Source: Escherichia phage vB_EcoM_REC
Strand: one strand, 5' to 3'
Sequence record: OM386667.1
Length of the DNA: 64,000 nucleotides
Shown here: positions 1-52,105 of the stretch, piece after piece
Numbering within the stretch: the stretch's first letter is position 1
Layout: each line of letters opens with the position of its first letter
The notes under the pieces: generated by a model
Told to the model about the DNA's origin: nothing
What the model saw: only the letters and a program-made list of their open reading frames with translations
Database searches by the model: none
Translations under genes and position numbers: made by a program

Positions 1-27
1 ACATTACCGACAGAATAAGGGATCACT

Positions 28-363
28 ATGGAATTTCAAGAAGCATGGGGACTTGCAAAGGATGCAATAATCCCTTTAATCGGAGTCATCTGGTTCTTTT
101 TCAAACAAAAAATGGATAAATTCGGCTCTGATCTTGAGGAAATGGAGGAGAAAAGTCGAGAGCTAGAGAAGAAGTTGGTCTTTGTTGAATCAACTTATGC
201 AACTAAAGCCGAACTTACCCAGATGCTAAATCAAATTAACTCTACATTAATGGCAAATAATAACACTCTTGAGCAAAAAATTGAAAAGATTATGGACCTC
301 AAGAATGCGACTATCCAAATGATGCTAGATGACATAGTTAAACGTACACAGAATAAGGGGTAA
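28..363 (+). CDS. hypothetical protein, N-terminal hydrophobic segment plus coiled-coil
   Basis: 111 aa ORF ending 4 bp before the tail-fibre gene; hydrophobic N-terminus (IIPLIGVIWFFF) then charged heptad-like region. Confidence 0.4.
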   Translation: MEFQEAWGLAKDAIIPLIGVIWFFFKQKMDKFGSDLEEMEEKSRELEKKLVFVESTYATKAELTQMLNQINSTLMANNNTLEQKIEKIMDLKNATIQMMLDDIVKRTQNKG

Positions 364-366
364 TTA

Positions 367-3300: not shown

Positions 3301-3420
3301 GTAACGCCTACGAGTGCTGGAGTTAGAATCAAAACCATACCTAACGATTCTAGTAATGTTTCTGTAGGTAATACTGCGGTTATTCGCCCAACACCAGTGG
3401 TAGATGTGCCAACAACCTAA
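367..3420 (+). CDS. tail fibre / tailspike-like protein with predicted parallel beta-helix domain
   Basis: 1017 aa ORF; central region rich in short N-x-T/S/I turns (NITIRNVF, NISIENIHG, NCTFKNG) typical of right-handed beta-helix depolymerase-type tailspikes; heads a fibre gene cluster. Confidence 0.5.
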   Translation: MATFPTYPATSLEQGVDLVIFSSNQLHDVINGSATESIETESGLIPTLRKSLVDNFFFKSPLDWAQGTNETVFNQLRYFQNGVLSGYYYAPNATLVNPIPMQGTPVGDNNWVLWGLKTEQLATEVTPWVYSGATGYETVISPPYIFDSAIVTINGVIQVLGEAFRIEDSKIILSEPLGHDPATGLPNKLFAYIGKIVASADTDPNLENRLVSLETKTEELTENMDKVPLQTIARKYGLLDDEVAYATAGQSLTGIKALYDPVAQSSYTLPPNITGTLTSLSVSGVMTYSGGSVDLSALAVERGQFVHLPTSFGNNVTLTAKNQTIGRGAGRYRWAGSLPKSILASDTLETSGGLGPNAWVLTNTEGLLTPRGGTYNDLFDVVRLSEFANNTTTYTTPEAAFQAALLAAKASKSKILDAYGCDMTFTTSSFDIQDITLRGGVFRGQRDYRVQNATVEGTTFRNSRVMYWGGAVRMFDCLWDGAPRAGQVGSLVFQGNPISGTFEIDNCTFKNGLYGILQQGTGEPVTRGVFRNLTFMDMQGDAIELNVINKHYDDGCVIENIYLSNIDGTNAPIPLSNWGIGIGVAGKGPYGYGIPDDQYCKNITIRNVFAKRCRQIVHVEVGRNISIENIHGDPDQTVSVGTGLATGAVVMYGSKDFTIDGVYGEPKTDGSTLASNIRMIYLEWGTNAVLDEEGNPVVPAQGRPSNPCFNYSVRNIHTKTGRVFAGVSAGPGYENRVSFENIHCAALQLFGVASWLSMSNITCNIFDCVGQPESGPGTFYDGFFRREKSVLEMVNVNCYPDGKTMVTGRPQWSRCRYSDIHRVNCNVEANMYTNIAGGIGAIVGTTGKVYYLEPNPSRNIDGMHFPTGKEFDKGDMIVKADNTFFLVTTSGAYIPDIPAFGIRATQAGDTFLTQNLTPNGTATNASWLYHYPLSAGTRIRIPGAGVGGADLDTVITRAPYQDNDTWTNPVKIDIADPIVTPTSAGVRIKTIPNDSSNVSVGNTAVIRPTPVVDVPTT

Positions 3421-3484
3421 TGGAAATAGAGAGGGGGATTCCCCCTCTTCTTCCAATAGAATGGTCTAATAATAGGAGAGATAA

Positions 3485-5509
3485 ATGAATTTAACAAGAC
3501 CTAATAGTGCGATAGCCGATCTAGTAGAAGCTACTTATCGAAAACGTCGCAGTTTTGAGGCAGGTTTTACATTACGTAATTCCCGTGAAGTTTTGCTGTT
3601 AGCGGCAGAAGGGAATTATTACCAATGGAAAGGAACTTTTCCTAAAGTAGTTCCAGCAAACTCTACGCCAGCCACCACAGGTGGTATTTCTTCCCTTGCA
3701 TGGCAAAGTGTTGGGACCGCTGATGATATAGCAATTATCAATGCCAAGTTTACGGCAATGCAGCAACAGATTGATGATCTGTCGGAAACAATACCTGAAG
3801 CTGGTAAATCGGCTTATCAGATCGCACTTGATAATGGTTTTGTTGGAACAGAAGCACAATGGCTTGCTTCTTTGAAAGGGGATACTGGTGCTCAACTTAA
3901 TATTAAAGGATCATTAGCAAGCACTAGTGAACTACCATCTACAGGTAACGTAGCAGGTGATGGTTATATTGTAGGAGATGTAATCTACGCTTGGGATGGG
4001 GCTGTTTGGAAACTTATCTCTTCTCTTGGGCCAGAAGGGAAATCAGCTTACGAGGTATGGTTAGCAGATGGTAATACAGGATCTGTTTATGACTTTCTTG
4101 CCTCTATAAAAGGTGATAAAGGAGACGTTGGTCCTACAGGTCCACAGGGTGCACCTGGTGTCAACGCTAATGGTTTTGATTACCGTGGAGATTTGCCTTC
4201 TACAAGTAACTTACCACAACCTAACTCTGAAAACGTAAGCCAAGCTTATTCTATTAATGGTAATCTTTATGTCTCTAATGGGACAGCTTGGGTCAACATG
4301 GGTAATATTGTTGGTCCTCAAGGTCCACAAGGTGAGGCAGGTAAAGACGGTCTAGATGGAACAGATGGAGACGAAGGGAAATCTGCATATCAAAGTTGGC
4401 TGGATGCTGGTAATGAAGGGACAGAAGTAGATTTTATTGCCTCACTTAAAGGTCCAAAAGGAGACAAGGGTGATCAAGGAGAGCGAGGTCCACAAGGTGA
4501 ACTAGGTCCACAAGGATCAGTGGGTGCAACAGGATCAGGTTTAGAGATTATCGGGGTTCTGAACAGCGAAGCTGAACTTCCTCCTACTGGAGAAGTAGGT
4601 GATGCATATAAAATTAATAATGATTTGTATGTTTGGGTTCAAGATGCTACAGAATGGATGAATGTAGGCAGTCTTGGAGGAACATCAATTACAGCTAAAG
4701 GTCATGTTCCGAACAGTGAAGCTCTCCCTGTTTATAATAACTACGGTGATGCCTATTTAACTGAAGACACTAGTAATCTTTACATCTATACCTACGATCA
4801 AGACACCAATTCCGCATCTTTTGTTGACATGGGAAGTATTAAAGGCGACAAAGGTGAAAAAGGGGATAAAGGAGATAAGGGTGATCCTGGAACAAACGGA
4901 ACCAACGGTACTGATGGGACCAACGGTAAGGACGGCGCACAGTGGTTTGTAGCAACAACTAATCCAGTCACAGGAGACGGTGTTATCAATGATTACGCCT
5001 TCAATACTACCACTGGAGCAGTATTTAAGAAAACAGATTCTTCTACGTGGACACTTATAGGAACTCTTCCTAGTATACCAGAAGCCCCTCAAGACGGCTT
5101 GACGTATGGTCGTTCTGATGGAAACTGGATCGAAATATCAGGATCAGATCCTACGGAAGCTATAACACCAACTAGAGTTACAGCAGGTTTCATGGAACTT
5201 GAAACAACTACTGCCAACTCTGGAGCATCTTGGACTCCTTCTGGAACTTCCAATATGTATGTTGTTACAGTAACTGACGCTCTGACAGTTGGAGCATGGC
5301 CTGGTGTCACTGGCTCTACAAAACCTAAAGCGTTTTCAGCAATGATTTATTTGATTCAAGATACAACGGGACACACGGTTACACTAGATGCGTCTTATGG
5401 AGCACTAAATGATACAGAAATAGCAACTACTGCTAACGCAGTAACAATTTTGCAATTAACGTATCCTGGTGTGGGTGATATCGTGGACATGGTTGTTGTA
5501 ACACGATAA
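3485..5509 (+). CDS. collagen-like tail fibre protein with phage-fibre repeats
   Basis: 674 aa; several G-X-Y runs (GPTGPQGAPG, GPQGPQGEAGKDGLDGTDGDEG, GDKGEKGDKGDKGDPGTNGTNGTDG); three copies of EGKSAYxxWLxxGNxGxxxDFxASxKG motif; terminator follows. Confidence 0.65.
   Translation: MNLTRPNSAIADLVEATYRKRRSFEAGFTLRNSREVLLLAAEGNYYQWKGTFPKVVPANSTPATTGGISSLAWQSVGTADDIAIINAKFTAMQQQIDDLSETIPEAGKSAYQIALDNGFVGTEAQWLASLKGDTGAQLNIKGSLASTSELPSTGNVAGDGYIVGDVIYAWDGAVWKLISSLGPEGKSAYEVWLADGNTGSVYDFLASIKGDKGDVGPTGPQGAPGVNANGFDYRGDLPSTSNLPQPNSENVSQAYSINGNLYVSNGTAWVNMGNIVGPQGPQGEAGKDGLDGTDGDEGKSAYQSWLDAGNEGTEVDFIASLKGPKGDKGDQGERGPQGELGPQGSVGATGSGLEIIGVLNSEAELPPTGEVGDAYKINNDLYVWVQDATEWMNVGSLGGTSITAKGHVPNSEALPVYNNYGDAYLTEDTSNLYIYTYDQDTNSASFVDMGSIKGDKGEKGDKGDKGDPGTNGTNGTDGTNGKDGAQWFVATTNPVTGDGVINDYAFNTTTGAVFKKTDSSTWTLIGTLPSIPEAPQDGLTYGRSDGNWIEISGSDPTEAITPTRVTAGFMELETTTANSGASWTPSGTSNMYVVTVTDALTVGAWPGVTGSTKPKAFSAMIYLIQDTTGHTVTLDASYGALNDTEIATTANAVTILQLTYPGVGDIVDMVVVTR
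3780..4480 (+). repeat. three in-frame protein repeats (GKSAY..WL..GN.G....F.AS.KG) inside the fibre gene
   Basis: AGKSAYQIALDNGFVGTEAQWLASLKGDTG / EGKSAYEVWLADGNTGSVYDFLASIKGDKGD / EGKSAYQSWLDAGNEGTEVDFIASLKGPKGDKGD read in the translation; coordinates approximate. Confidence 0.6.
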
Positions 5510-5512
5510 CAG

Positions 5513-5537
5513 AAGCCCCGAAAGGGGCTTTCTTTTT
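5513..5537 (+). terminator. rho-independent terminator
   Basis: AAGCCCC-gaaa-GGGGCTT hairpin followed by TCTTTTT, directly after the stop at 5509. Confidence 0.7.
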
Positions 5538-5550
5538 ATGGAGGGTTTAA

Positions 5551-8223
5551 ATGTTTCCAATTCCAATATTTACTATTATGACCAGCACTGGTGTCGTTCC
5601 TCTGCCAGCAGGTATTGTTAAAAAAGTAATCACTCTAGATTACCCAGATAATGCTGGCAATTCTAATAGCAGTTTAGCAATTTTGCTTAATGATGGTAGA
5701 TTGTTTACTCAAGGCGCAAACCTTTTTGGTGAGATTGCAGATGGAACTCGTAGTGCACGATTCAATAATTTCCACTTAGCTTCTACTGTAGTAGCGGATG
5801 TGTTTACCGCAGATCGTTGTTTTGTTATTAAAACTAACAGTGGGGGATGGCAATATTCAGGATTGACAGCAGGGTTGGTAGGATCTATAGCAGCAGGTGG
5901 TACGGATGCATGTGTAACTACTTGGACCAGCTTTCCATCTGTAATAACAGGGACTATCTCTTTAGCCAATCTTAAAGAGGTTAAGGGAGGATATAACAAC
6001 ACTCTCTGGTTGATGAATAGTGGTGTTCTTTATGGATCAGGTCAAAACACAGTAGGCAGTTTAGGTGCAAGTACTACTAACGAAGTTTCTACTCCTCGTC
6101 AGATAACAAGTGCAGCAGTTGCTTTTGATGCAGGTTACAACCAATGCTCTTATGTCAACAATGTGGGAACCTTGCGTGTTTGTGGGGCTAGTAAAGGTTT
6201 AGCAGGTAATAATAACACAACAACAGCTTTTGTCAATGCCAAGATATCCGCTACTGAAACAGTGTATGTCAAAGATTACATCAATACAGTTTCCCAGACA
6301 ATAGTTGTAGGAGATACCTCCGGTGGCACGGGTACAGTAAACTACTTATATGTTAGATCTAATACAGAAACAACCTACACTAAACTGGACACCTTTGCAG
6401 CAGGTTTCTCAACATGGAAATTTCCACCAAGCCGCCACTCTTTTTTCGTTGGGATCAATAATTCCTTGTGGGCTATTGGTAAGAACTACACTGCAAACTT
6501 AGGTTTGGGGTATGATTCTGCGAGCGGAGATCCACTCCAAGTGGGAAAACCAGTTAAACCTGAAGGAGTGGGTTCCTGGGATATAAACAAGCTCACAAGC
6601 GTTCATACACTGAATATGGATGTTACTAACCAATTAGGTTATCAAGGAACCTTTTTCGTTTATAATGGAGATATGTATTATTCAGGTATTTGGAAAGATG
6701 GGAAAGCCTCGTATCTGTTCAATAGTGGTCTAAACTATAATAAATTCACACCAATAGCAAGCTCCGTGATTACAGGGGATGTTCTGGCAACTGGCTTAAC
6801 TACAGATTCTTTAGGAATTTGTATTGTAGGTGGAACTAAACAGTTGACACATTCTGTTAGCCCAGAAGGAGGTAAACTTTTCAATATTAAATACACTTCT
6901 TCTGCCCCTGCAAACATGACAATATCATCTACTGGTTTAATGACTTTCCATGCAGAAGGTGGTTTTGATGCAGGTATGACAGCCTTAAACGCTGAAGGAA
7001 CAATTTTATCAGATACCTCTGGAGGATATGCTTCAACATTGAGTGTTTACACCCCTAGCTTATCTGCGATGGATGTAGGAACAACACAAACAATGGTAGC
7101 AGAAATAACACCAACAGGAGCAGCAAGCTTACCTGATATGGTTGTTGAGTATACAACTACAGATCCTAATGTTGCTACAGTAGATCCTACAACTGGTGTA
7201 ATAACTGGTGTTGGTGATGGTGGTTGTAGGATTGGTTGCACAGCTACGTATCAAGGTGTTGTTACCGCTTCTGATAGTTCTTATTTAACGGTGAATGCTG
7301 TTGCGGGAAAGGAGTTAGCTCCATCTCCGAGTAGTAGTTTAACGGTTCTAAACGGATATTTCAACCACTCGGCAGATGGGGCAATTACGTTCCCAACTTT
7401 ATCGGGTACTGTTACACCAGCTAACTTTGTAGTTAAGGTGGATGACGTTGTAGTTCCTTCAAGTAAAGTAATATTTAGAAACAAAGCTTTCTCTACAGTG
7501 GATAGTTATCCAGCAGGAGAATATAGACTGGCTATTGAATTTGCAAGTGCTTCAGTAGTTAATAGTGTGGAAGTGTCTATGGAAGCAAACCCAAGTCTTT
7601 TAGAACTTTGGGGCGGTAATAGAATCAGTTATTCTACAAGCCCAGCCTCACAATTCTTAAAAGGTTGTGCTAACTTAAGACGAATAACTTCTGATTGTTT
7701 TAGTAACACATCTTACACCGGAACATCTATAAGCGGTATCTTCTCTGGCTGCACAAGTTTGACAGCTATCCCTGAAGGATTATTCAGTGATGCTTTATTT
7801 CCTTCAATGACAACAATGTCAAGCACGTTTGAAGGTTGTACATCTTTAACATCTATTCCTTCAGATTTATTTAAGAATCTGTCAAAAGTTACAAGATATT
7901 CTTACACCTTTAAAGATTGCACCTCTCTTGCAGAAGTTCCAGCAGGAATGTTTGATAATATTCCAACGAAAGTGACCTCTTTAACAGCTACATTCCAAGG
8001 TTGTTTAGGACTTACAGATTTTAATAAGATCTTTAATGACAACCCAGGGTTAACTGTTTGTGGTAAACGTGGAGCATTATCTTCTTTCTTTAGTGGATGC
8101 ACAAATCTTACAGGAACAGGAACAACATTAACAAATACATTAGGCGGAGTAGCTAATAGTTACCTATTCAGGTATTGCACAAAACTTTCTGATTATAACA
8201 ACATTCCTTCCGGTTATAAATAA
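5551..8223 (+). CDS. tail fibre / adhesin-like protein with Ig-like (Big_2-type) segment and C-terminal BspA-type leucine-rich repeats
   Basis: 890 aa; segment DVGTTQTMVAEITPTGAASLPDMVVEYTTTDPNVATVDPTTGVITGVGDGG resembles bacterial Ig-like domains; C-terminus has repeated F.GCTSLT.IP..LF units. Confidence 0.5.
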   Translation: MFPIPIFTIMTSTGVVPLPAGIVKKVITLDYPDNAGNSNSSLAILLNDGRLFTQGANLFGEIADGTRSARFNNFHLASTVVADVFTADRCFVIKTNSGGWQYSGLTAGLVGSIAAGGTDACVTTWTSFPSVITGTISLANLKEVKGGYNNTLWLMNSGVLYGSGQNTVGSLGASTTNEVSTPRQITSAAVAFDAGYNQCSYVNNVGTLRVCGASKGLAGNNNTTTAFVNAKISATETVYVKDYINTVSQTIVVGDTSGGTGTVNYLYVRSNTETTYTKLDTFAAGFSTWKFPPSRHSFFVGINNSLWAIGKNYTANLGLGYDSASGDPLQVGKPVKPEGVGSWDINKLTSVHTLNMDVTNQLGYQGTFFVYNGDMYYSGIWKDGKASYLFNSGLNYNKFTPIASSVITGDVLATGLTTDSLGICIVGGTKQLTHSVSPEGGKLFNIKYTSSAPANMTISSTGLMTFHAEGGFDAGMTALNAEGTILSDTSGGYASTLSVYTPSLSAMDVGTTQTMVAEITPTGAASLPDMVVEYTTTDPNVATVDPTTGVITGVGDGGCRIGCTATYQGVVTASDSSYLTVNAVAGKELAPSPSSSLTVLNGYFNHSADGAITFPTLSGTVTPANFVVKVDDVVVPSSKVIFRNKAFSTVDSYPAGEYRLAIEFASASVVNSVEVSMEANPSLLELWGGNRISYSTSPASQFLKGCANLRRITSDCFSNTSYTGTSISGIFSGCTSLTAIPEGLFSDALFPSMTTMSSTFEGCTSLTSIPSDLFKNLSKVTRYSYTFKDCTSLAEVPAGMFDNIPTKVTSLTATFQGCLGLTDFNKIFNDNPGLTVCGKRGALSSFFSGCTNLTGTGTTLTNTLGGVANSYLFRYCTKLSDYNNIPSGYK

Positions 8224-8225
8224 GA

Positions 8226-8252
8226 AAAGGAGCCATTTGGCTCCTTTCTTTT
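8226..8252. terminator. bidirectional rho-independent terminator between convergent gene blocks
   Basis: AAAAGGAGCC-attt-GGCTCCTTTT, 9-bp stem flanked by A-run upstream and T-run downstream; lies between plus-strand stop (8223) and minus-strand stop (8280). Confidence 0.7.
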
Positions 8253-8279
8253 ATAAAAACTCTTTATAAATCAATAAGA

Positions 8280-9167
8280 TCAGAACGGAATATCATCATC
8301 GAAGTCCATCGGAGGTTCTTCTTGATTACTTGGAGTTGGTTCTGGTTGTGGTTCAGGCTTTTTAACTTCTTTCTTCTCTTCTTTCTTAGGTTGTTCTGCG
8401 GAACCACGAATGGCAGCAGCAACTTTATCAGACAGAGCCAGAACTTTACGAGCAGAATCAATCAGATCTTCTACAGATACAGTCTTAATGGTATGGTCTT
8501 TACAAGCATTAAGGATAGCGTGACCAACAGATGCCCCAAGATCATAATCATTAATATCAACGCCACGAGATTCAGCAATTTCAGATTTCAGCGTGACAGT
8601 TGCAGATTGAACAACCCCAGCGATATCGAAAGCATCGCCTTTAACACCATTACGAATCAGTTCCAGTGCACCATTTACTGCGTGACCAGTTTCCAGACCT
8701 ACAGTATCACGTTTTTTATAGGACTGTTTAGGAGCAGCATCGTTGGAACCTTTATTGCCAGAAGATTTGTTAGACTTCTGAACACCATCGGTAGACAATA
8801 CTGTAATACGAGATTTTTTAGTATTGTAGTAAGTTTTACCGCCTTTATTATCAACGCGATCAATATCAATACTTACTTCTACACCTTTTTCAATAGTGAT
8901 CCAGTTATCACCTTCTTTGACTTGCAGGTTTTCATAACCTTCTTTCAGTTCAATGTCACCAAGAGAAATCCAAACACCTTTCTCCTCTGGTTTAGCACCT
9001 TTCTCTTTCAGAACAAGAGAAGCTCGGTGAGTTGAAACAATCGTTTTTCCTTCCCAATGAAAAGTTTTAGGTTCAGCGAATTTATCCAGTTTAACGTAGT
9101 CTACGATACCAGTTGCATAAGTTACGGTTTTGCCTTTACGATCAGTTTCAGTATTAATTACGGACAT
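8280..9167 (-). CDS. single-stranded DNA-binding protein-like, with proline-rich linker and acidic C-terminal tip
   Basis: 295 aa; C-terminus ...KPEPQPEPTPSNQEEPPMDFDDDIPF is identical in its last residues to the E. coli SSB tip motif; N-terminal part is not a canonical E. coli-type OB sequence. Confidence 0.55.
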   Translation of the reverse strand: MSVINTETDRKGKTVTYATGIVDYVKLDKFAEPKTFHWEGKTIVSTHRASLVLKEKGAKPEEKGVWISLGDIELKEGYENLQVKEGDNWITIEKGVEVSIDIDRVDNKGGKTYYNTKKSRITVLSTDGVQKSNKSSGNKGSNDAAPKQSYKKRDTVGLETGHAVNGALELIRNGVKGDAFDIAGVVQSATVTLKSEIAESRGVDINDYDLGASVGHAILNACKDHTIKTVSVEDLIDSARKVLALSDKVAAAIRGSAEQPKKEEKKEVKKPEPQPEPTPSNQEEPPMDFDDDIPF

Positions 9168-9183
9168 TATTATCTCCTCTATA

Positions 9184-9576
9184 TTACATTAATTTTGCAC
9201 AGAAAGAGCGGAGTCTTTCCATATCATCTTGCTCTAACAGGTATTTACCTTTACCTATTCCAACTCCAATTTCACCGTTAGGGAAATGAACTATTTGCAC
9301 TGGAAAACCTCCGAGTTTAATTGTGGCAGCTTTGCCTTCTTCGTCTATAACGTTTCGGATTGTATCTTGCAGTGAAATGAATTCTTTGTTTGTAACAGTG
9401 GCTTCAATTATTTCAGAGGTTTCAACACGAGCCGTTAGCTTCTTGTCTCCACCTTGAATAATCAAAATTTGAAAATAAAAAGAGTTGTCAAGACCTACAA
9501 CATTTTTCTCAACTAGTGTCAAACTGGTATAATTTCCATAAACAGTTTCAACAGCTATTTTAGAACGTTCAGTCAT
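9184..9576 (-). CDS. hypothetical protein
   Basis: 130 aa ORF in the co-directional replication block, tight spacing to neighbours. Confidence 0.4.
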   Translation of the reverse strand: MTERSKIAVETVYGNYTSLTLVEKNVVGLDNSFYFQILIIQGGDKKLTARVETSEIIEATVTNKEFISLQDTIRNVIDEEGKAATIKLGGFPVQIVHFPNGEIGVGIGKGKYLLEQDDMERLRSFCAKLM

Positions 9577-9621
9577 TGAATGCTATCCTATCATAAAATG
9601 TTTAATATTGTCAAGCTTTAA

Positions 9622-10215
9622 TTACCAAGGAATATCTTCTTCTTCCAATTTGGTATCTACTTGAGGTGGACGTGGAACCTTAACCTCTTTAACAAAACGA
9701 AGATATGGAAAACGTGTAGCGATTTTAATAACATGTTTGGCATCTTCTCTAACATCTTTGTGCAAGAAGCAGATCCCTGTTTCCAAAGTTGTTTCAAAAT
9801 CTTTAGAGTAATAACAATCCTTTCCATCAAATGCAGCCTGGCAGATGGACAGATCAAACTCATTCAGAAAGGTTGTCATTACATTTGGGTCCATAATCAT
9901 AAGGTTGCAAAGCTGACCGTCACGTTCAAATTCAAAAACGTGTTTAAGACCAGTAACACCCTCGTAGTTATCAGAAGCCTCTTTGTTTCCTAGCTTACGA
10001 ACATTAGTTCCCATTAAAGCAGATGCAATTAGTTCTTGTATTTGCTCTTCTGATCGATGTGCAGGAAGTGACGTATAGAAATCCAGATCACGTCCAGCAA
10101 TATCAAGAATACGCCAATCACGAACAGCACCGCCAGCCAAGACAGAATTAGGATCAGCGATCTTTAAGACAGTAAGAATTTCTTTGGCAATGTTGATTTG
10201 TTTTGATTTAGTCAT
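9622..10215 (-). CDS. minimal nucleotidyltransferase (Pol-beta superfamily) with SSB-tip-like C-terminus
   Basis: 197 aa; GGAVRDWRILDIAGRDLDF resembles the GGxVRD...DxD head motif of CCA-adding/poly(A) polymerase-type nucleotidyltransferases; ends LEEEDIPW. Confidence 0.45.
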   Translation of the reverse strand: MTKSKQINIAKEILTVLKIADPNSVLAGGAVRDWRILDIAGRDLDFYTSLPAHRSEEQIQELIASALMGTNVRKLGNKEASDNYEGVTGLKHVFEFERDGQLCNLMIMDPNVMTTFLNEFDLSICQAAFDGKDCYYSKDFETTLETGICFLHKDVREDAKHVIKIATRFPYLRFVKEVKVPRPPQVDTKLEEEDIPW

Positions 10216-10426
10216 TGATACGCTCCACAGTTACTTTAACAATATCGTCCATATTAATCTCATCTCCCAAGACTTCAATAACACCTTCCTCATAAAGTCG
10301 AGCACATTCTTCCCATACTTCTGCTTCCGTCATTCCACCTTCAATCTTATTTGCAAGACCTTTAATAACATCTTCATTTTGTTCATCAATAAGAATTGAA
10401 ACATTAAAGCTCACTAGTTTACGCAT
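10208..10426 (-). CDS. hypothetical acidic protein
   Basis: 72 aa ORF overlapping the upstream stop by 8 bp. Confidence 0.35.
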   Translation of the reverse strand: MRKLVSFNVSILIDEQNEDVIKGLANKIEGGMTEAEVWEECARLYEEGVIEVLGDEINMDDIVKVTVERIND

Positions 10427-10603
10427 TGTTTTCTCCTTATACCTCTAAACGGAAAGTTTCTTTAGATACAAAATCGTATCCACCTTTTTCAAGCCAGTCA
10501 TTGTAAACCTCATCAGCTTGAGACTCTATCATAAAATACCGAGTGGTAATTTCGTCTCCGACAATACGCACAATTTTATAGCAAATCATGATACCATTTC
10601 CCA

Positions 10604-10795
10604 TTAATCTTCCTCCAGATCAATTTCATTATAGCAATGTATGCAGTAGCCATCGTTGTGCATATGTTGTTCATAAGACATATCTTTACCACAAGACCAA
10701 CAACGAATATCGCCATCGTCCCATTCACGTTCTTCTTCGCCTTCAAATGCATCTGGTAGGTAAGGCATACCAAGACAATCTAAATCGTAATGCAT
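10604..10795 (-). CDS. small Cys-rich (zinc-ribbon-like) protein
   Basis: start moved to the internal ATG at 10795 preceded by AGGAGGA; CWSCG...CIHC pairs; the longer track ORF would overlap the polymerase. Confidence 0.35.
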   Translation of the reverse strand: MHYDLDCLGMPYLPDAFEGEEEREWDDGDIRCWSCGKDMSYEQHMHNDGYCIHCYNEIDLEED

Positions 10796-10844
10796 ATCTC
10801 CTCCTATAAAGGGGCAGAAGCCCCTTATAAAACAATATGTTAGA

Positions 10845-13800
10845 TCAATGACAGGATGCCCAGGAATTACCCACGTCATATCCGGCAGTAAGCTGAACGT
10901 TAAGATTGTAAAATTCTCCAGCCTTAGTAACAGCTAAAGCAGCAAGTTCACCTGCCCGACTATAAGCTGTAAACCATCCACCTTTGGGAGATTCATGAAT
11001 GTTAGCCCAAATTTGCCCTGTCTCTTTTTCCTTATTATGCTTCCATTCTTCAACTTTAGCAAGGCATTCTTTATCAATTTTCTTTTGTTCTTCAGGATCG
11101 TCTACTTTCTTCCAACCTAATGATTCAGGTGAAAACCATTTGAATTCTACAAGGTTACGAGAAACTTCAAGCTGGGCTTCATCGTGGTATGCAATCATTT
11201 GTTGCACGAAGTCTTTATTCTTCCAGTCATCTTTAAAGAAGTCAACACTTAGTCCTTCTTCTTCGATCATATCGTCATAAATAACCATTGCACGTTTAGC
11301 ACAGATAACCCCACCACTTTGGAACAGAGAGTTAAGAATCGCGTGAGCAGAACGAGTAGGAACCTTACGACCGTCAATACCCAAAACATACTGTTTACCA
11401 GTCTTAACCCAGAAATCGTTTAAACGTTCTTTAAGACGCGCCAGTGGGAATGCAGCTTCCCAGAAAGCATCGAACACCAGTTGCCCTGTAAACTTATCGC
11501 TACCAATTGTTTTAGCAACCTTGTCGGCTTGTGCACCATAGGTAATACCATACTTAACAGATTTAGCAGGACTACGTTCAAATTTACGTCCAATAGTTTC
11601 AGTGATACGTTTTGCCATCATGGTATGAACATCGTTAGGCTTCTCTAACAAGAGAGCGTTACAGTATTCATGAGGCTCCGGTTCGTAGCGCCAACAGTTT
11701 CCTGTGATGGTAATGCAGTCTTTCTGACGCATGACCCACGTACCAAGTTCTGTTTGTGGACACCAAACATCCTCTACACCCCACTCTTCAATAGTCAAAC
11801 TTTGAACAGGAATGTGAGAGCGGTTAGCCAATGTTACCACTTTTACTTTCTGCTCTTTTGTATTGAAAGCTACAGAGATATTGCCTCCATGCACCAGGTA
11901 CGAGGCAGTTAAAGCTGCTTCAAAAAGTTCACCTGGGTTCTGCGCCCAACGCCAAACAGGTTTTTGTTTATGTTCATGCCAGTAACCATCTGCAATCAAG
12001 AAACCTTCCAAGAAAGCTACACGCTCGGCATGAGACATATTAACTACACGCTCTACCCACGGAACATCCCATTTACCTTGTTGAACAGAAGTTAAACTAT
12101 TTACCTGATCTTGTTCCATGTTAAATGGAGCATTACAAATAATATTATCTCCTGTGCAAAGCTCGGCAGTTGTTCTGACTTTAGGCACATAAGTATTCCC
12201 TTTACTACGGGTATTAACATACCAACGGTGATCTGCTGTTGCACGGTAAGTGTGTGATTTCCCTTTAATCTCAAACGTCTTACTATTTTTATAGAAGACC
12301 TTACCTTTTACTTTAGTCCATTCTTTCAGACCTGTTTCAGCATTGTACCCTAAAATCTCATCCCCTTCCTTCAGGTCGTGATATCCTACCCAACCTTTAC
12401 GAGTCAAAGCTTGAGCATCCATCGGCACACAGTAATGTGATTCAATTTTTGCTTCCAAAGAGTCGAAGTCGTAGCCGATCTGGAAGTATTTAGGAACCTC
12501 TACACCAAACAAGTTACGCATCTCCCATCCAAACAAAGATGTGACACGAGGAATATTAGCTACAGATCTATGTTTCATACGAGAGGTTGCAGCATCACAT
12601 GTAGCGGCTGGTGTAGGAATACGCCCATCCGCCCTTACTGCGGCTAAGAAACCTTTATCGTATTCTTGATCTTCTTCATCTTCTTCCCAATCAGCACCGC
12701 CACCTAAAATAGAGTTCCTACGATGCTTATACGTTAAGTATTCTACAATCTGTGTAGCATAAGGAAATTTCTCACCCAAAGCTTGCAGGTTAGGACAAAT
12801 TTCTTTTTCCTGACCTTTGGTAAAACATGGGTTAGTCAATACTTTAAGACCGCGACCTTTACCTTTTGCTATACGCTCTTGAATCTTCCTTTCCAAAGTT
12901 TCCGGTGTGCACTCCAGATGATCACAACGATCCTGACAAAAATTAGAAGATAGAGTTTGCTCAACGTAAGCTCTAATACCTTTCTGAAGTTCTTCCTCGC
13001 TCTTTTTAATTTTGGTGCCAGATTTAAGCGTCAAGTCTTTATCTTTATATTCAGACGGTACCCAACCTAATCCTACGAGCCAGTTTTTAATATGGGTTGT
13101 ATCGTTCAATGTTGCAGGGATGTTAGGATCACATAGAGGCTCATCTGCTGCAACTGGCAGTTTCCACTCTTTCCCCCACATAACTAACCACCAATCGCCA
13201 TCCCTCTCTTCCAAATGACCATCATGTTTCTTAGCAAAATTGATCATATGGTTAGTTGGCTCTAAGTTCTTTTTAATTTGCAACTTAGGTGGAATAAAAG
13301 CCTTAAGATAACCTTTTGTTGCTGGTTTAGGTGGCAAAATAGGCTCAACGAGTAAACGAAGACGCTCCATTTCTGCATCCAAAAAAGCAAGGTTCTCTTC
13401 TGCTTGCTTCATGTTAAAAGCAAACCCACGGTGTTCCTGGCGTGTAATAATGTCTGCTACACGTTGTTCAAGTTCAAATGGACCTTCCCATTTATCATAA
13501 TCGCCCCATTCTTCCATAAGGTAATTATATACGCTCGTATTGGCTTTGTTGTCATAGATACAGTAATAAAGCATATCCGCAGCAAAAGTCTTAAATCGAT
13601 CTTCTTCTGGAATCTCTTTACGGAAATCTATTTTTACATCACCACCTGCTTTTCGAGAAAGTGCTGCCAAGCTATGTCCTGATTTGCCCTCAATCTTTCG
13701 ATCTGGGTTTAACACTTTACTCAAAATCAAGGAGTCAATAAGTTTTACCTTATTTTTGCCCCACGTATTATATTTAACACTGTAATCTAATCCATAAAAC

Positions 13801-14177
13801 AGTTTTGTAGCCAACCAGTCGTAGTTGATACCGTTGTGAGCCACAGCCATTTCAACCAGATATTCAGGCTTGTCTTTAAAATAACCTTCATGATTAATAA
13901 AATCTGGGAAATCTTTTAGTTGAAAATGTGTGTAATCTTGCGCCACATACTCTTTAAGAACATATGTGTATTTACCATCTGACTCTTCATAAGGACGCCC
14001 ATCAAAGATGTATTTAGGGCCATCGTGGAAAGCTACTATTTCTCCTGTTTCATGGTTCTCTAAGACAATACAGTGCATTTGAAATGTGTCTTTGAGACGA
14101 TAAGGACTAGCTAAATAATCAATAGTGTCATTATTCAACAATCCGTTTGCTTCAATATCCCATGTAAACTTACTCAC
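10845..14177 (-). CDS. family A DNA polymerase (T7 gp5-like) with 3-prime to 5-prime exonuclease domain, interrupted by an intein
   Basis: 1110 aa; N-terminal FTWDIEANGLL (exo I, cf. T7 MIVSDIEANALL), DFDSLEAKI (motif A), KYGITYGAQADKVAK (motif B), C-terminal GNSWASCH (cf. T7 GPNWAICH). Confidence 0.9.
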   Translation of the reverse strand: MSKFTWDIEANGLLNNDTIDYLASPYRLKDTFQMHCIVLENHETGEIVAFHDGPKYIFDGRPYEESDGKYTYVLKEYVAQDYTHFQLKDFPDFINHEGYFKDKPEYLVEMAVAHNGINYDWLATKLFYGLDYSVKYNTWGKNKVKLIDSLILSKVLNPDRKIEGKSGHSLAALSRKAGGDVKIDFRKEIPEEDRFKTFAADMLYYCIYDNKANTSVYNYLMEEWGDYDKWEGPFELEQRVADIITRQEHRGFAFNMKQAEENLAFLDAEMERLRLLVEPILPPKPATKGYLKAFIPPKLQIKKNLEPTNHMINFAKKHDGHLEERDGDWWLVMWGKEWKLPVAADEPLCDPNIPATLNDTTHIKNWLVGLGWVPSEYKDKDLTLKSGTKIKKSEEELQKGIRAYVEQTLSSNFCQDRCDHLECTPETLERKIQERIAKGKGRGLKVLTNPCFTKGQEKEICPNLQALGEKFPYATQIVEYLTYKHRRNSILGGGADWEEDEEDQEYDKGFLAAVRADGRIPTPAATCDAATSRMKHRSVANIPRVTSLFGWEMRNLFGVEVPKYFQIGYDFDSLEAKIESHYCVPMDAQALTRKGWVGYHDLKEGDEILGYNAETGLKEWTKVKGKVFYKNSKTFEIKGKSHTYRATADHRWYVNTRSKGNTYVPKVRTTAELCTGDNIICNAPFNMEQDQVNSLTSVQQGKWDVPWVERVVNMSHAERVAFLEGFLIADGYWHEHKQKPVWRWAQNPGELFEAALTASYLVHGGNISVAFNTKEQKVKVVTLANRSHIPVQSLTIEEWGVEDVWCPQTELGTWVMRQKDCITITGNCWRYEPEPHEYCNALLLEKPNDVHTMMAKRITETIGRKFERSPAKSVKYGITYGAQADKVAKTIGSDKFTGQLVFDAFWEAAFPLARLKERLNDFWVKTGKQYVLGIDGRKVPTRSAHAILNSLFQSGGVICAKRAMVIYDDMIEEEGLSVDFFKDDWKNKDFVQQMIAYHDEAQLEVSRNLVEFKWFSPESLGWKKVDDPEEQKKIDKECLAKVEEWKHNKEKETGQIWANIHESPKGGWFTAYSRAGELAALAVTKAGEFYNLNVQLTAGYDVGNSWASCH
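11697..12431 (-). mobile_element. intein with LAGLIDADG homing-endonuclease domain inserted between polymerase motifs A and B
   Basis: residues 583-827: begins CVPMDAQAL, contains TADHRWYV (block B T..H), FLEGFLIADGYW (LAGLIDADG), ends ...CITITGN followed by Cys +1; flanking extein sequence aligns with T7 polymerase. Confidence 0.6.
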
Positions 14178-32949: not shown

Positions 32950-33420
32950 TTAATCTGATTGCCAACCACTTGCCGTTTTGGTCCATAATCTTTGATTATC
33001 TGACCCTCTGAAAGGTTTTGTAGTTGGATTGTTTATTTCATACTTTCCGTCTACAATAATGTCAACAAGATTTTTAATATACAAAGGCACTTCCTCAAAA
33101 GTATATCCTGTATACACCATTATATCTTTGCTTGACCCATAAACGTCTCTAACCTTTTCTATAAGGTTTTTAACATTGTAAATATTCTGCGGATCTAATG
33201 GCTCTCCTCCTAAAATTGTTAAACCTTTTACAAACGGTCTTGACAAATCTTTTAAAACTTGCTCTACATTTTCGTGAGTAAACGGTTTCCCATAAGAATA
33301 AGACCAGGCTTTTTGGTTAAAACAGCCACGACAACCGTGGCTACAACCACTAACCCAGAGGGAGCACCTAACTCCCTCACCATTAATAAGATCTACAGGT
33401 TCATATCCTGCAAAATTCAA
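32950..33420 (-). CDS. nrdG: anaerobic ribonucleotide reductase activating protein (radical SAM)
   Basis: 156 aa; CSHGCRGC cluster near the N-terminus; directly downstream of and overlapping nrdD. Confidence 0.85.
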   Translation of the reverse strand: MNFAGYEPVDLINGEGVRCSLWVSGCSHGCRGCFNQKAWSYSYGKPFTHENVEQVLKDLSRPFVKGLTILGGEPLDPQNIYNVKNLIEKVRDVYGSSKDIMVYTGYTFEEVPLYIKNLVDIIVDGKYEINNPTTKPFRGSDNQRLWTKTASGWQSD

Positions 33421-35282
33421 AGATGTTTCTCCCTTTGCAAAACTTCCTGCATTTTACCTTTGTTGTAAGGCCGTGAATTAGGGGCAGAAAGATACCCTGA
33501 TACACGTCTAACTACAGAAATAGTTTCTTCTTCATGGTTGCCACAATCAGGACACTCAAACCCTTTAGCCGTTGCCTTAAATTCTCCATGAAAACCACAC
33601 TTAAAGCATTGATCCACGGGCTGATTAATACCAAAATAGTGAATATGTTCATAAGCGTAGTCTACTAAAGTCTCCAAAGCTTCTAAGTTATTCTTTAAGT
33701 TTGGTGTTTCGACATAACTTATGTTACCACCATTACTAATCTGTGCAAAACCTGCTTCATAATCCCATTTTTCAAAAGGATTTGTTACCAACCATACAGG
33801 TTGATGAAAAGAGTTAGTAAGATAGTCTCTTTCTACCAAACTTGGGTATTTTTCATTTAAAGCTGTTGCAAACTTATAGCACAAAGATTCTGCTGGAGTT
33901 CCATAGAGACTAAACGCCAGCTTAGATCGTTCTTTAAACACAGCACACACATCTTTCATATGTTGCAGAATGCTTTTACCAAGTTCCTTTTTATCTTTTT
34001 CTTCTGGATAAAGGATTTCCAAAGCTTCGGCAAGACCTACATAACCAATACTAATAGAAGCATAACCACCTTCAAACAAAACACCAATTTCATCATTGGC
34101 ATTTAAACGCGCTAAAGCCCCTTCCATGAAAAGAATAGGGTTTTCAGATGCTTTGGTATGTCTGATACGGTTTACACGTAGCATGTGAGCATCGTAGGCT
34201 ATCTCCATATGTTTATTAAGAAGATCGGTGAAAGATTCTCCTTTACTTCTCGCTTCCGCAGCGATCAGAGGTAAGTTGATAGAAACTACTCCAAGGTTGA
34301 ATCGTCCATCGTATTTTTCTCCTTGTTCGGTGGCATAGTACGACAAAAAGGAACGACAACCCATACTCGTAACAGTACCATCTGCTGATCCCGTAACTTC
34401 TTTGTTCAAAGGAACAGAAATAAAATCTGGATAAATACGATCAGCACAACATGCCAAAGCTTGTTGCTTAAGGTCATAGTTAGGATCACTAGGTTTCATG
34501 TTAACACCTTCTTGTAAAAAGAAAATAACTTTAGGGAATACAGGCGTTACATGATCTTTGCCTAGACCGTTACTATGCACTTTAAGATAGTTAGCTGTAA
34601 TCATTCTGCCAAAAACAGAGGTATCCAGACCCATACTGATTGTAATAAAAGGAGATTGTCCATTAACACTCATTAAAGTATTAACCTGATACAAGAGAGT
34701 TTGCATAGCATCGTATACATCTTGTTCGGTCATTTCTAGGGCTTCTTTCCTTGCATAACAACCGTAGCGACGTTTGGTTATCTCCATGTTTTTAAGGAAA
34801 CTAGCTTCAACATAAGGACTAAGACCTTTATCAATGTGCGCACACGTGAAACTAGCTTCAACATAAGGACTAAGACCTTTATCAATGTGCGCACACGTCT
34901 GACCTCCATACTGACTGGAGGCAACAGCTTGGATAATTTGAGTTAGCACTGTGGTAGCTACCCCAATAGATTTTGGTTTTTCTATCTGTGCGGCTCCGAT
35001 CTTAAAACCATTCTCTAACATATCTTGATAATTAACAAGACAACAGTTTGTAAGAGGAGAGAGTAGATAATCCAAGTCGTGAATATGTCCAAAACCTTCT
35101 GTATGCCACTCTGACAAGTTTTTTGGCAGTATCTGTGTCATTGCCATATGTTTGCTTAAAATCCCCGCCAAGAGATCCCTATGCGTGTTAACGAGGTGGG
35201 AAGGTTTGTTTGCATTCTCTCTAGTGTATGTTTCTGAAGTGCGATCTAAAAAAGAAAAAACATCTTGGTACAAATCTTTCAT
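33417..35282 (-). CDS. nrdD: anaerobic ribonucleoside-triphosphate reductase
   Basis: 621 aa; C-terminal zinc ribbon CFKCG...CPDCG followed by glycyl-radical motif RVSGYL; carries a 17-aa in-frame tandem duplication. Confidence 0.9.
   Translation of the reverse strand: MKDLYQDVFSFLDRTSETYTRENANKPSHLVNTHRDLLAGILSKHMAMTQILPKNLSEWHTEGFGHIHDLDYLLSPLTNCCLVNYQDMLENGFKIGAAQIEKPKSIGVATTVLTQIIQAVASSQYGGQTCAHIDKGLSPYVEASFTCAHIDKGLSPYVEASFLKNMEITKRRYGCYARKEALEMTEQDVYDAMQTLLYQVNTLMSVNGQSPFITISMGLDTSVFGRMITANYLKVHSNGLGKDHVTPVFPKVIFFLQEGVNMKPSDPNYDLKQQALACCADRIYPDFISVPLNKEVTGSADGTVTSMGCRSFLSYYATEQGEKYDGRFNLGVVSINLPLIAAEARSKGESFTDLLNKHMEIAYDAHMLRVNRIRHTKASENPILFMEGALARLNANDEIGVLFEGGYASISIGYVGLAEALEILYPEEKDKKELGKSILQHMKDVCAVFKERSKLAFSLYGTPAESLCYKFATALNEKYPSLVERDYLTNSFHQPVWLVTNPFEKWDYEAGFAQISNGGNISYVETPNLKNNLEALETLVDYAYEHIHYFGINQPVDQCFKCGFHGEFKATAKGFECPDCGNHEEETISVVRRVSGYLSAPNSRPYNKGKMQEVLQREKHL
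34797..34898. repeat. perfect 51-bp tandem duplication (2 copies) inside nrdD
   Basis: GAAACTAGCTTCAACATAAGGACTAAGACCTTTATCAATGTGCGCACACGT at 34797-34847 and again at 34848-34898; encodes TCAHIDKGLSPYVEASF twice. Confidence 0.9.
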
Positions 35283-35383: not shown

Positions 35384-36730
35384 TTATCGTTTGGAGAGGA
35401 ATTGTCTTCCCATGATCTTACCGTTCTTTACAGCGGTCCCATCGTGTCCATTATAATCCCAAGTTCCATCAATATTACGCAAGAAGCTATCACGAACAGT
35501 GTAGGCTTTACCGTTCTCTACTTTACTTTCTTCCACAATGATTGCCATAACAAGCTTATTTTCAATTTCGGTAGTAACCGATTCTTTGATACCCTCTGTA
35601 ACTTCACGGTCATATTGGATATAAACTCGCTCCTCGGTTACTTGCACGTCTACCACATTTTTAAATGTGTAGGTCTGTTGTGTAGTGTAGAGGACACGAA
35701 CGACACTCTTCTTACCTACTGGCGGCTTCTGACGACGTTTGCGGTAACGTGGAGATGGGTTAAGTTTAATATAACCTACAATATCTGATCCATCTCCAGA
35801 GTGGCTCCAATAAAATGTCTCTGCCAAACCTTTTCCTTGGTCCCCATTTCGAAAAAGAACATTAACAGGACCATCACAAGGGCGTCTACCTCCGATGTGT
35901 GCTTGGTATTTTGCTGTTCTTGGGAGAACAAAATATTCTTCAATCTGCCATTCACTATCGTATTTCTCCCATTCGAAGTGGTTGGCTTTACATACTTCTA
36001 AAACACCATTTTTGTAACGGACTTGAACAAAGTCTTCACAAGGTTGAATACCTGTATTAGGAATATAGGTAGGCTCTGTGTCTTCTGGTTCAAAAGTCTC
36101 TTTTTGTTGTTCCACATCTTCCACTTTTCTTACATGCTTAGTATAAAACATATCTTTAAACTCCTGCGCTTCAACCTCAACTGCAAATTCATGTTCTCTG
36201 ACAGCCGGAGGCACAAGGCTTCCACACTCAAGATGCAGCGCATCCAGACCTGCCATTTTATCGTAAAAGATAACTTTTCGATACTTCTTACCGTCTTCTG
36301 GAATAGCAGGGTCTACTCGTTTAAGACGGGAAGCATCGCTTTTAGTCCAAAAACTCTTCCCTGTTGTATTATTGAAAGTAGTAATCATTTCTTCAATTTC
36401 TTCTTCAGAAAGGTTACTAGTGTCTGTGTAAACATCTTCAATTTTTAGCATTTTAGTTTTCTTAAGAATTAAATCTAGCATTGCATCTCCTGTAAAACGT
36501 AGCTCATTATCTCCTACTGTCGGCTCTCCAGAAAATTCATTGGTCCCGACTGTATGACAGATGTATGGAAAATTTGTGCAACCGTGTAAAAGAGCATATT
36601 GTCCTGTAAGTTTAGGATCTGTCTCTTTAGTCCAACCATATGCAATTTCAATAGCTTTGCAAAGCCTATCGAACAAGCCCCGATTGTTTGCCGCTGTTAC
36701 CAAATCTTGCTTATGTGTATATACATTCAT
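35384..36730 (-). CDS. hypothetical protein (448 aa)
   Basis: long ORF with RBS; no motif recognised by eye. Confidence 0.5.
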   Translation of the reverse strand: MNVYTHKQDLVTAANNRGLFDRLCKAIEIAYGWTKETDPKLTGQYALLHGCTNFPYICHTVGTNEFSGEPTVGDNELRFTGDAMLDLILKKTKMLKIEDVYTDTSNLSEEEIEEMITTFNNTTGKSFWTKSDASRLKRVDPAIPEDGKKYRKVIFYDKMAGLDALHLECGSLVPPAVREHEFAVEVEAQEFKDMFYTKHVRKVEDVEQQKETFEPEDTEPTYIPNTGIQPCEDFVQVRYKNGVLEVCKANHFEWEKYDSEWQIEEYFVLPRTAKYQAHIGGRRPCDGPVNVLFRNGDQGKGLAETFYWSHSGDGSDIVGYIKLNPSPRYRKRRQKPPVGKKSVVRVLYTTQQTYTFKNVVDVQVTEERVYIQYDREVTEGIKESVTTEIENKLVMAIIVEESKVENGKAYTVRDSFLRNIDGTWDYNGHDGTAVKNGKIMGRQFLSKR

Positions 36731-37529: not shown

Positions 37530-39122
37530 TTAACGATCCTCTCTGATTTGATTAATCTTACGAGCAAGGGCAGCTATAAGCTTATCTTCTTCAGATACAG
37601 GAGCCGTGCTCTTACCTAAACGATGCATGTCTAGAATCTCTTGAACAGTCCGGTTCCATTGTAGACATTTAATACAACGTGTATGTGCAACATACAGAAG
37701 ATTTCGTTCTGATTCTTCAAGACCTACCCACTCACCCTTCTTATCATAATTAGAAGGAAAGTCATTTGCAACAATAACCTGATCCCATTCCAAACCTTTT
37801 GATTTGTGGGCTGTAGTTAAAGTAACTTTAGCCGTTGGAGAGTTACGGTGCATACGTAAAGTGTATGCAATATTATTAGCTTTACCAGAAACAACGATGT
37901 TTAAAAGTCGTTTTGCATCAGGATCTGATTCTGCACACTCTACAAATTCTTCCCAAGAAGTGTAAGGTAGGACTGTCTCATGCTTAACTTTGTCCAAATC
38001 ACCTCTACGTAAAGCATTAACACTATCCACCATAGAAATGAAATCTTTGGTATCTACGTTAATAATAATCTCTTCTCCGTTAGCGATTCGGTCCATAGCT
38101 TCGAGCAACAGAGTCAAATTCTTACGGAAAATAATGGTGTAAGGTTTACTATAATCTACCACATCAGAATGAAAACTTCCAGTGACAGTATCATAACCTT
38201 TGCCTACCAGCGGATGCTTCAGAGGTGAGCGATCAGAAAGGATCGCATTAGCAATGTCCGCAACTTTAGGACCAAAGCGAAAACAAGCTGTCAGAGGCAA
38301 CTCAACCCCATATGTAGCCGTTTGCTTCATCATGTTCTGGCTTCCACGGAACTGATAAATACTCTGAAATTCATCACCCACAACAACAATACGTTTAGCC
38401 GATTTAGCATTGCGAAGGATAGACAGGAATGCAGGGTTAACATCCTGGAATTCATCTCCAAAAATAATATCATATCCTAAGTCTTCTTTGCTCAATTCAA
38501 AGAGTTTCACATAGGTGTCATGAGTCATAATGGTTTCTGATTTAGGATCAATACGCTCACGCCAAAGTTGCTTCGCATATTTAACAACTTCGTTAATAAG
38601 TTTTTGTTCGTTGATGTTCTTACGTTTAAGATCTGACATATGCACTTTAGGAAAATGTTTATGTCCAATATGTTCATCGTCAGAAAACTCATATTTAGCT
38701 AAAGTTTGTTTTACCATTAACCCGATCATTGCACGAGTCAGTAGCACTTTACCATTCTTATCAATCAAATTCTGAATCTTGAATTTTTTGGCAATCTCAC
38801 TACCAGTTCCAGCTACGTTAACATATTGACCTTCTGGACGAGACAATTTGTGTCGAAGGTTTTGTGGAAGACGCTGGTAACAGATTGAATGTAGCGTTCG
38901 GCACATAACGTTAGGCGGCATTTTACGTCGAGCTTCCTCTGCCATACTTTTGTTAAACGCCAAATATAGAATACTATCATTTGTGCCATTAGCCAACATA
39001 TACAGTGTTGACGTTTTACCTGATCCAGATTTAGCTTGAATTGTAACGAAACGATTTTCTTGATACCCACTTTCAATAGCGTATTGTTCGTCGGTAGGTG
39101 TAAAACTCAATTGTGTAGACAC
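37530..39122 (-). CDS. superfamily 1 DNA helicase (UvrD/Rep-like)
   Basis: 530 aa; AKSGSGKTST (Walker A), RTLHSICYQ, IIFGDEFQDVN (motif II), VVVGDEFQSIYQFRG (motif III), LTTAHKSKGLEWDQV, LLYVAHTRCIKCL. Confidence 0.8.
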   Translation of the reverse strand: MSTQLSFTPTDEQYAIESGYQENRFVTIQAKSGSGKTSTLYMLANGTNDSILYLAFNKSMAEEARRKMPPNVMCRTLHSICYQRLPQNLRHKLSRPEGQYVNVAGTGSEIAKKFKIQNLIDKNGKVLLTRAMIGLMVKQTLAKYEFSDDEHIGHKHFPKVHMSDLKRKNINEQKLINEVVKYAKQLWRERIDPKSETIMTHDTYVKLFELSKEDLGYDIIFGDEFQDVNPAFLSILRNAKSAKRIVVVGDEFQSIYQFRGSQNMMKQTATYGVELPLTACFRFGPKVADIANAILSDRSPLKHPLVGKGYDTVTGSFHSDVVDYSKPYTIIFRKNLTLLLEAMDRIANGEEIIINVDTKDFISMVDSVNALRRGDLDKVKHETVLPYTSWEEFVECAESDPDAKRLLNIVVSGKANNIAYTLRMHRNSPTAKVTLTTAHKSKGLEWDQVIVANDFPSNYDKKGEWVGLEESERNLLYVAHTRCIKCLQWNRTVQEILDMHRLGKSTAPVSEEDKLIAALARKINQIREDR

Positions 39123-51000: not shown

Positions 51001-51114
51001 TGAGAAGAGTTCTCATATGGAAATGCAAATGATAATGATTCGCATTTAAGTTTATAAATGAGATTGATTCTTATTTAATAAGGTAAATGACAATCATTCT
51101 CATTTAGAGAATGA
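51001..51114. promoter_or_regulatory. two palindromes (candidate protein-binding sites)
   Basis: TGAGAA-gag-TTCTCA at 51001-51015 and TCATTCTC-attta-GAGAATGA at 51094-51114. Confidence 0.4.
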
Positions 51115-52021: not shown

Positions 52022-52080
52022 TTGACAACAAACAACAACCTGATAAGATGTATCACATAGGGCGGGAAGTGGTTTCCCGC
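52022..52080 (+). promoter_or_regulatory. early promoter-leader module (TTGACA-16-TAAGAT plus hairpin GCGGGAA...TTCCCGC)
   Basis: -35 52022-52027, -10 52044-52049, hairpin 52062-52080. Confidence 0.6.
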
Positions 52081-52105
52081 TCGTAACAGAAGAGAGATTA
52101 TCATC

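Follow-up and report, generated by a model that had tools for sequence, protein, structure and literature searches.

The perfect 51-bp tandem duplication within nrdD of Escherichia phage vB_EcoM_REC is very probably an artefact of the assembly and re-orientation of the deposited genome, in which a terminal k-mer overlap was kept. We favor this reading because the parent phage ESCO37 is 100% identical and yet single-copy at the site, because the relatives are single-copy as well, and because the annotation of the gene is 5'-truncated just after the repeat. The real REC phage most likely carries an ordinary 604-aa NrdD. The sequence analyzed, here called the window, is a stretch of 64,000 nt from the REC record (OM386667), and the features needed to follow the repeat are these:

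32950..33420, minus strand: nrdG, encoding the radical-SAM activase for NrdD; it overlaps the stop codon of nrdD (Fer4_12 E=3.3e-42, Radical_SAM E=2.4e-9)

33417..35282, minus strand: nrdD open reading frame (ORF) as it stands in the window, 621 aa plus stop, with the Pfam domains NRDD and Gly_radical

34797..34847, no strand assigned: 51-bp copy 1, the downstream copy in gene orientation, encoding aa 146-162 of the 621-aa ORF

34848..34898, no strand assigned: 51-bp copy 2, the upstream copy in gene orientation, encoding aa 129-145 and the same as copy 1

The duplicate can be read directly from the sequence, as 34797-34847 and 34848-34898 hold the same 51-mer (GAAACTAGCTTCAACATAAGGACTAAGACCTTTATCAATGTGCGCACACGT) back to back with 0 mismatches. 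The initial annotation had described a perfect 51-bp in-frame tandem duplication, and this was borne out both by Tandem Repeats Finder (period 51, 2.0 copies, 100% matches, score 204) and by our own scan of periods 6-1999, in which it was the one perfect tandem duplication of the whole window. Chance is excluded as its origin by an expectation of about 6e4 x 4^-51. The repeat reads in frame within the minus-strand nrdD ORF, and NrdD residues 129-145 (TCAHIDKGLSPYVEASF) recur as residues 146-162 to give a 17-residue repeat; the gene and the duplicated peptide had thus been named correctly, as judged from Pfam and from these residue positions. That the repeat falls in frame is a one-in-three coincidence, and one of the two copies is redundant.

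The repeat is flanked on the left by ...TTTTTAAG and on the right by CTGACC..., and the number of bases shared at its boundaries is 0. Microhomology was sought at both boundaries and none was found: the unit starts with GAAACT vs CTGACC after copy 2, and it ends with CACGT vs TTAAG before copy 1. The junction between copy 1 and copy 2 reads …ATCAATGTGCGCACACGT / GAAACTAGCTTCAAC… (also written …GCGCACACGT / GAAACTAGCT…).

The gene that contains the repeat is clearly recognizable. The 621-aa ORF covers profile positions 1-562 of 562 in the NRDD profile PF13597 (E=7.3e-163) and matches PF01228 (Gly_radical) at residues 501-601 (E=1.9e-27). A Cys4 zinc ribbon (CFKCG...CPDCG) precedes the C-terminal glycyl-radical domain, and the motif RRVSGYL is also present. 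Judged from its sequence by the profile, the glycyl-radical domain and the neighboring NrdG, the predicted product is the large subunit of a class III anaerobic ribonucleotide reductase, and the nrdD-nrdG operon is otherwise intact. Removal of one repeat copy gives a 604-aa NrdD that is identical to UPW38903.1 of ESCO37. The true start of nrdD is preceded, at 7 nt, by an AAGGA ribosome-binding site. A single-sequence AlphaFold2 model of the 621-aa ORF (mean pLDDT 35, pTM 0.25) was too poor to place the repeat. Directly upstream of nrdD, at 35384-36730 on the minus strand, lies a gene for a 448-aa protein with no Pfam match (UPW38904.1 in ESCO37 and UPW40325.1 in REC). In some records this protein is labelled 'ribonucleotide reductase', which is probably an annotation carry-over from its nrdD neighbor.

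REC (156,300 bp) arose in the laboratory by recombination between ESCO5 and ESCO37; after co-infection it was picked from a plaque chosen for its altered morphology, and its genome is about 7 kb larger than that of either parent (PMC10269720). By megablast, the region falls in the genus Phapecoctavirus. Positions 1-12437 of the window equal ESCO5 (KX664695.3) save for one difference at position 4517, while 12429-64000 shows 0 substitutions over 51.5 kb vs ESCO37 (OM386659.1). In the latter interval the two sequences differ only by the extra 51 bp of the window and by a 55-bp duplicate in ESCO37. The REC nrdD segment was inherited from ESCO37, in which the counterpart of the 51-bp unit is a single copy at record positions 119808-119858.

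Absence from the parent and the relatives is equally expected of a brand-new mutation, and the repeat could accordingly be a true in-frame tandem duplication of very recent date that arose by replication slippage or illegitimate recombination in the REC lineage, during the few passages that followed co-infection with ESCO5 and ESCO37 in the laboratory. The ORF remains open and in frame, new mutations are conceivable in a fresh laboratory recombinant from an altered-morphology plaque, and aerobic laboratory culture does not require nrdD, so that selection would not act against the duplication; it would be tolerated where the anaerobic reductase is unneeded, as in aerated culture. We nevertheless regard this origin as improbable. 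No other mutation is present in the 51.5 kb, and the boundaries lack microhomology, whereas replication slippage normally acts between short direct repeats. The annotation of the REC gene and the sibling records, described below, also speak against it.

The copy number in relatives was compared directly. Among the phage relatives listed (about 60 records), nrdD spans 1815 bp vs the 1866-bp query, i.e., one copy of the unit, with the single exception of a genome that carries an unrelated insertion elsewhere in nrdD. In 12 further public contigs (ENA, Logan, NCBI), NrdD is called at 604 aa, at 608 aa from an alternative start, or in pieces separated by a mobile ORF, and wherever the 51-mer is exactly conserved it is present once. 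A 40-nt junction probe spanning 34848 gave 0 exact matches in viral, genome and metagenome contig collections, and the 621-aa NrdD was absent when looked up among about 15 billion public proteins. An old, tolerated duplication common to relatives is rejected, as each relative is single-copy at the site; a diverged duplicate in related phages had been named as the observation that would count against a recent origin, and the comparison turned up none. Length variation at the repeat site was sought among the relatives and none was found. With neither microhomology nor such variation, the earlier suggestions of a slippage-prone site and of an altered enzyme are left unsupported.

Near residue 293, the nrdD of some phapecoctaviruses contains an interrupting ORF whose I-HmuI-like (NUMOD) match is weak. 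In the contig from Logan SRR6474917 (3418-6004) the interrupted gene reads as 293 aa + 169 aa + 314 aa, and in phage 536P1 (OZ035728.1 64758-67343) it spans 2586 bp. These interrupted genes recall the group I intron in T4 nrdD, and the insertion near residue 293 is unrelated to the 51-bp repeat site.

The decisive evidence comes from the annotation that was deposited for the REC gene, which an exact-sequence look-up identified as follows:

33417..34787, minus strand: annotated REC NrdD, UPW40324.1 'anaerobic ribonucleoside-triphosphate reductase', 456 aa, 5'-truncated

This protein begins MEITKRRYG… at the first ATG after the repeat, 10 nt downstream of it, and its accession adjoins UPW40325.1, the product of the neighboring 448-aa gene. 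A Shine-Dalgarno sequence was sought upstream of this ATG (gctagtttccttaaaaacATG) and none was found. By the same exact-sequence look-up, the only accession found for the 604-aa NrdD belongs to ESCO37, and the full 604-aa gene was called in ESCO37 by the same SPAdes/Prokka pipeline. We also looked up the N-terminal 145-aa fragment together with nine C-terminal fragments from successive in-frame start codons, the set being the predicted output of a closed-end gene caller if the contig began at the 51-mer. Exactly one of these predicted fragments is on record, namely the 456 aa from the first ATG after the repeat, and neither the N-terminal 145-aa fragment nor an intact REC NrdD of 604 or 621 aa was found on record.

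An in-frame insertion of 51 bp would not make a gene caller drop a good start. Since the caller took an ATG without a ribosome-binding site and not the start with AAGGA, the upstream DNA must have been absent at annotation, and the 456-aa call therefore implies that the 51-mer was the start of the contig at annotation. In the deposited sequence the repeat is tens of kilobases away from either record end; therefore, the sequence was rotated after annotation. This evidence, indirect but specific, indicates that the repeat represents the ends of the contig as originally assembled and annotated. A genuine duplication leaves the 456-aa annotation unexplained, as it would give no reason for choosing an ATG without a ribosome-binding site when the full gene was called in ESCO37. 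We also considered that the repeat had been introduced into the window and was absent from GenBank. This is unsupported, as the REC NrdD on record is neither 604 nor 621 aa and the fragment starts after the repeat.

Values of 55 and 127 are typical for the final k of SPAdes, and the k of a de Bruijn assembler must be odd. SPAdes and Prokka formed the pipeline of the study from which the REC record comes, and each genome was a single SPAdes contig (PMC10269720). In the ESCO37 record the locus tags decrease as far as ESCO37_00001 (ending at 136975), after which ESCO37_00290 (starting at 137121) comes next, and from this jump it follows that the record was re-oriented once it had been annotated. 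Positions 136995-137104 of OM386659.1, exactly between these two tags, hold a perfect 55-bp tandem duplicate, and REC is single-copy at the homologous site (window 52034-52088). This duplicate is a SPAdes overlap (k=55) that was left untrimmed when the record was rotated, and it is located at the original contig junction. In ESCO25 (OM386656.1), positions 1-127 equal 148947-149073, i.e., the first 127 nt match the last 127 nt; the record was not rotated, with tag 00001 at position 12, and the match is an untrimmed k=127 assembler overlap in a record deposited as a complete genome. The ESCO37 and ESCO25 overlaps, of 55 bp and 127 nt, therefore demonstrate untrimmed end overlaps for this record set, with a length that varies by record. 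An end overlap was also sought at the record ends of ESCO3, ESCO45 and ESCO58 and none was found, so the habit is not universal. Perfect repeats of this kind at proven contig junctions in sibling records further reduce the probability that the REC repeat is a genuine duplication.

The length of the REC repeat, 51, is odd and is not a default SPAdes k, and the published description lists no k values (PMC10269720). As 51 fits neither these defaults nor the 55- and 127-bp overlaps of the siblings, a different error might be considered, such as a mistake in contig joining, manual editing or scaffold merging, or a change after deposition, and not specifically a k-mer end overlap. The size of REC (156,300 bp, about 7 kb more than its parents) could likewise mean that its record was assembled or edited differently. 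Against this stand the statement of a single SPAdes contig per genome (PMC10269720) and the annotation that starts immediately after the repeat, which fits a contig end at the exact 51-mer; we consider such an error very unlikely, even more so than a genuine duplication. The exactly 2.0 copies, their odd length and the lack of bases shared with the flanks fit a k-mer overlap.

The retained end overlap very probably became an internal repeat in the following way. As the genome assembles as a circle, a de Bruijn-graph assembler would emit a linear contig whose first 51 bases are the same as its last 51 bases. The arbitrary break point of the contig would have fallen inside nrdD, with copy 1 being the contig start and copy 2 the contig end. 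The contig would have been annotated while open; the N-terminal part of the gene, running off the end, would have remained uncalled, and the C-terminal part would have been called from its first ATG to give the 456-aa NrdD. On rotation to match related genomes, the end would then have been joined to the start with the overlap untrimmed, leaving an internal perfect 51-bp duplicate. From the above we infer both the order of the steps, i.e., annotation followed by rotation, and the k of 51. The initial annotation had left the choice between a very recent event and an assembly artefact; the parent, the relatives and the annotation of the gene favor the artefact, and the recent event loses ground accordingly.

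The biological significance of the repeat is very small, as the NrdD of the phage is almost certainly an ordinary T4-like one, and the repeat has no bearing on NrdD function. It matters more for curation. In the REC record (OM386667), 51 bp appear to be spurious and nrdD appears in truncated form in the annotation, when it should be 1815 nt (604 aa); the ESCO37 record (OM386659) has a spurious 55 bp, and the ESCO25 record (OM386656) a redundant 127-bp end. Where overlaps of this kind go untrimmed, records show duplications and gene truncations that are false, genome lengths are inflated, and the overlaps will continue to be picked up in scans for recent duplications. An odd-length perfect tandem repeat together with a gene annotation truncated beside it is a signature by which such overlaps can be filtered out. 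If the duplication were true, a de novo insertion of 17 residues after QYGG would be a natural experiment on insertion tolerance in a glycyl-radical enzyme, or alternatively a marker of error-prone recombination during co-infection.

A more interesting lead than the nrdD repeat is found at the crossover from ESCO5 to ESCO37, which in REC lies within window 12429-12437. The gene for a family-A DNA polymerase (ORF 10845..14177) contains a 245-aa in-frame insert at 11697-12431 on the minus strand, which is present in ESCO5 and absent in ESCO37. The insert reads CVPMDAQ…ITITGN and is followed by C, and it has weak Pfam matches to Intein_splicing (E=0.009) and LAGLIDADG_3 (E=0.14); on these features it is a probable intein. 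The REC crossover is flush with the upstream edge of the insert, within 9 bp, which suggests that the recombination that formed REC may have been initiated at the homing site of the intein, through a double-strand break or by a homing endonuclease. In print, the crossover is placed in regions identical between the parents, with nothing further said (PMC10269720).

An intein is also indicated in a UvrD-type helicase of some relatives, and not in that of the window (gene at about 37530-39122): in the relative from Logan SRR6474917 (1-1171) the protein has 876 aa with Hint/Intein_splicing matches, vs 530 aa. Other repeats in the window are of a different kind. At 4278-4926, in the tail-fibre/tail-spike region, there are several arrays with periods of 9 and 18 bp (e.g., 4475-4516 and 4840-4926) that are consistent with collagen-like Gly-X-Y repeats; the sole difference between the window and ESCO5, at position 4517, lies at the edge of one such array. 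Positions 51027-51111, among short early genes, hold an imperfect tandem array with a 29-bp period (2.9 copies, 73% matches).

Among known systems, the protein can be compared with NrdD of T4 (605 aa; PDB 1H78, E=3.9e-168), for which the structures 1H78/1H79/1H7A/1H7B/1HK8 are available. The de-duplicated 604-aa protein aligns with it end to end, with gaps of at most a few residues. Residues 128-144 of T4 NrdD (TFANVDKVLSPYVKRTY) align without gaps to residues 129-145 of the window NrdD, right after the conserved QYGG motif. The segment is single-copy in T4 NrdD and relatives, and the 17-residue repeat occurs only in the window NrdD.

Genuine tandem duplications in phage genes resemble the REC repeat in being head-to-tail and in frame, and perfect copies are expected just after the event. 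They differ in that short direct repeats are typical of them and there are none at the 51-bp repeat. Furthermore, a genuine duplication would leave an intact 621-aa ORF to be called, whereas the deposited annotation is a 456-aa fragment. From rotated k-mer end-overlap artefacts the repeat differs in its length, as 51 is outside the default k values of SPAdes. It is like them in its perfect copies, its odd length, its lack of microhomology, the arbitrary position of the break and the truncated annotation; it is like them also in its absence from parent and relatives, and the siblings ESCO37 and ESCO25 show the same phenomenon.
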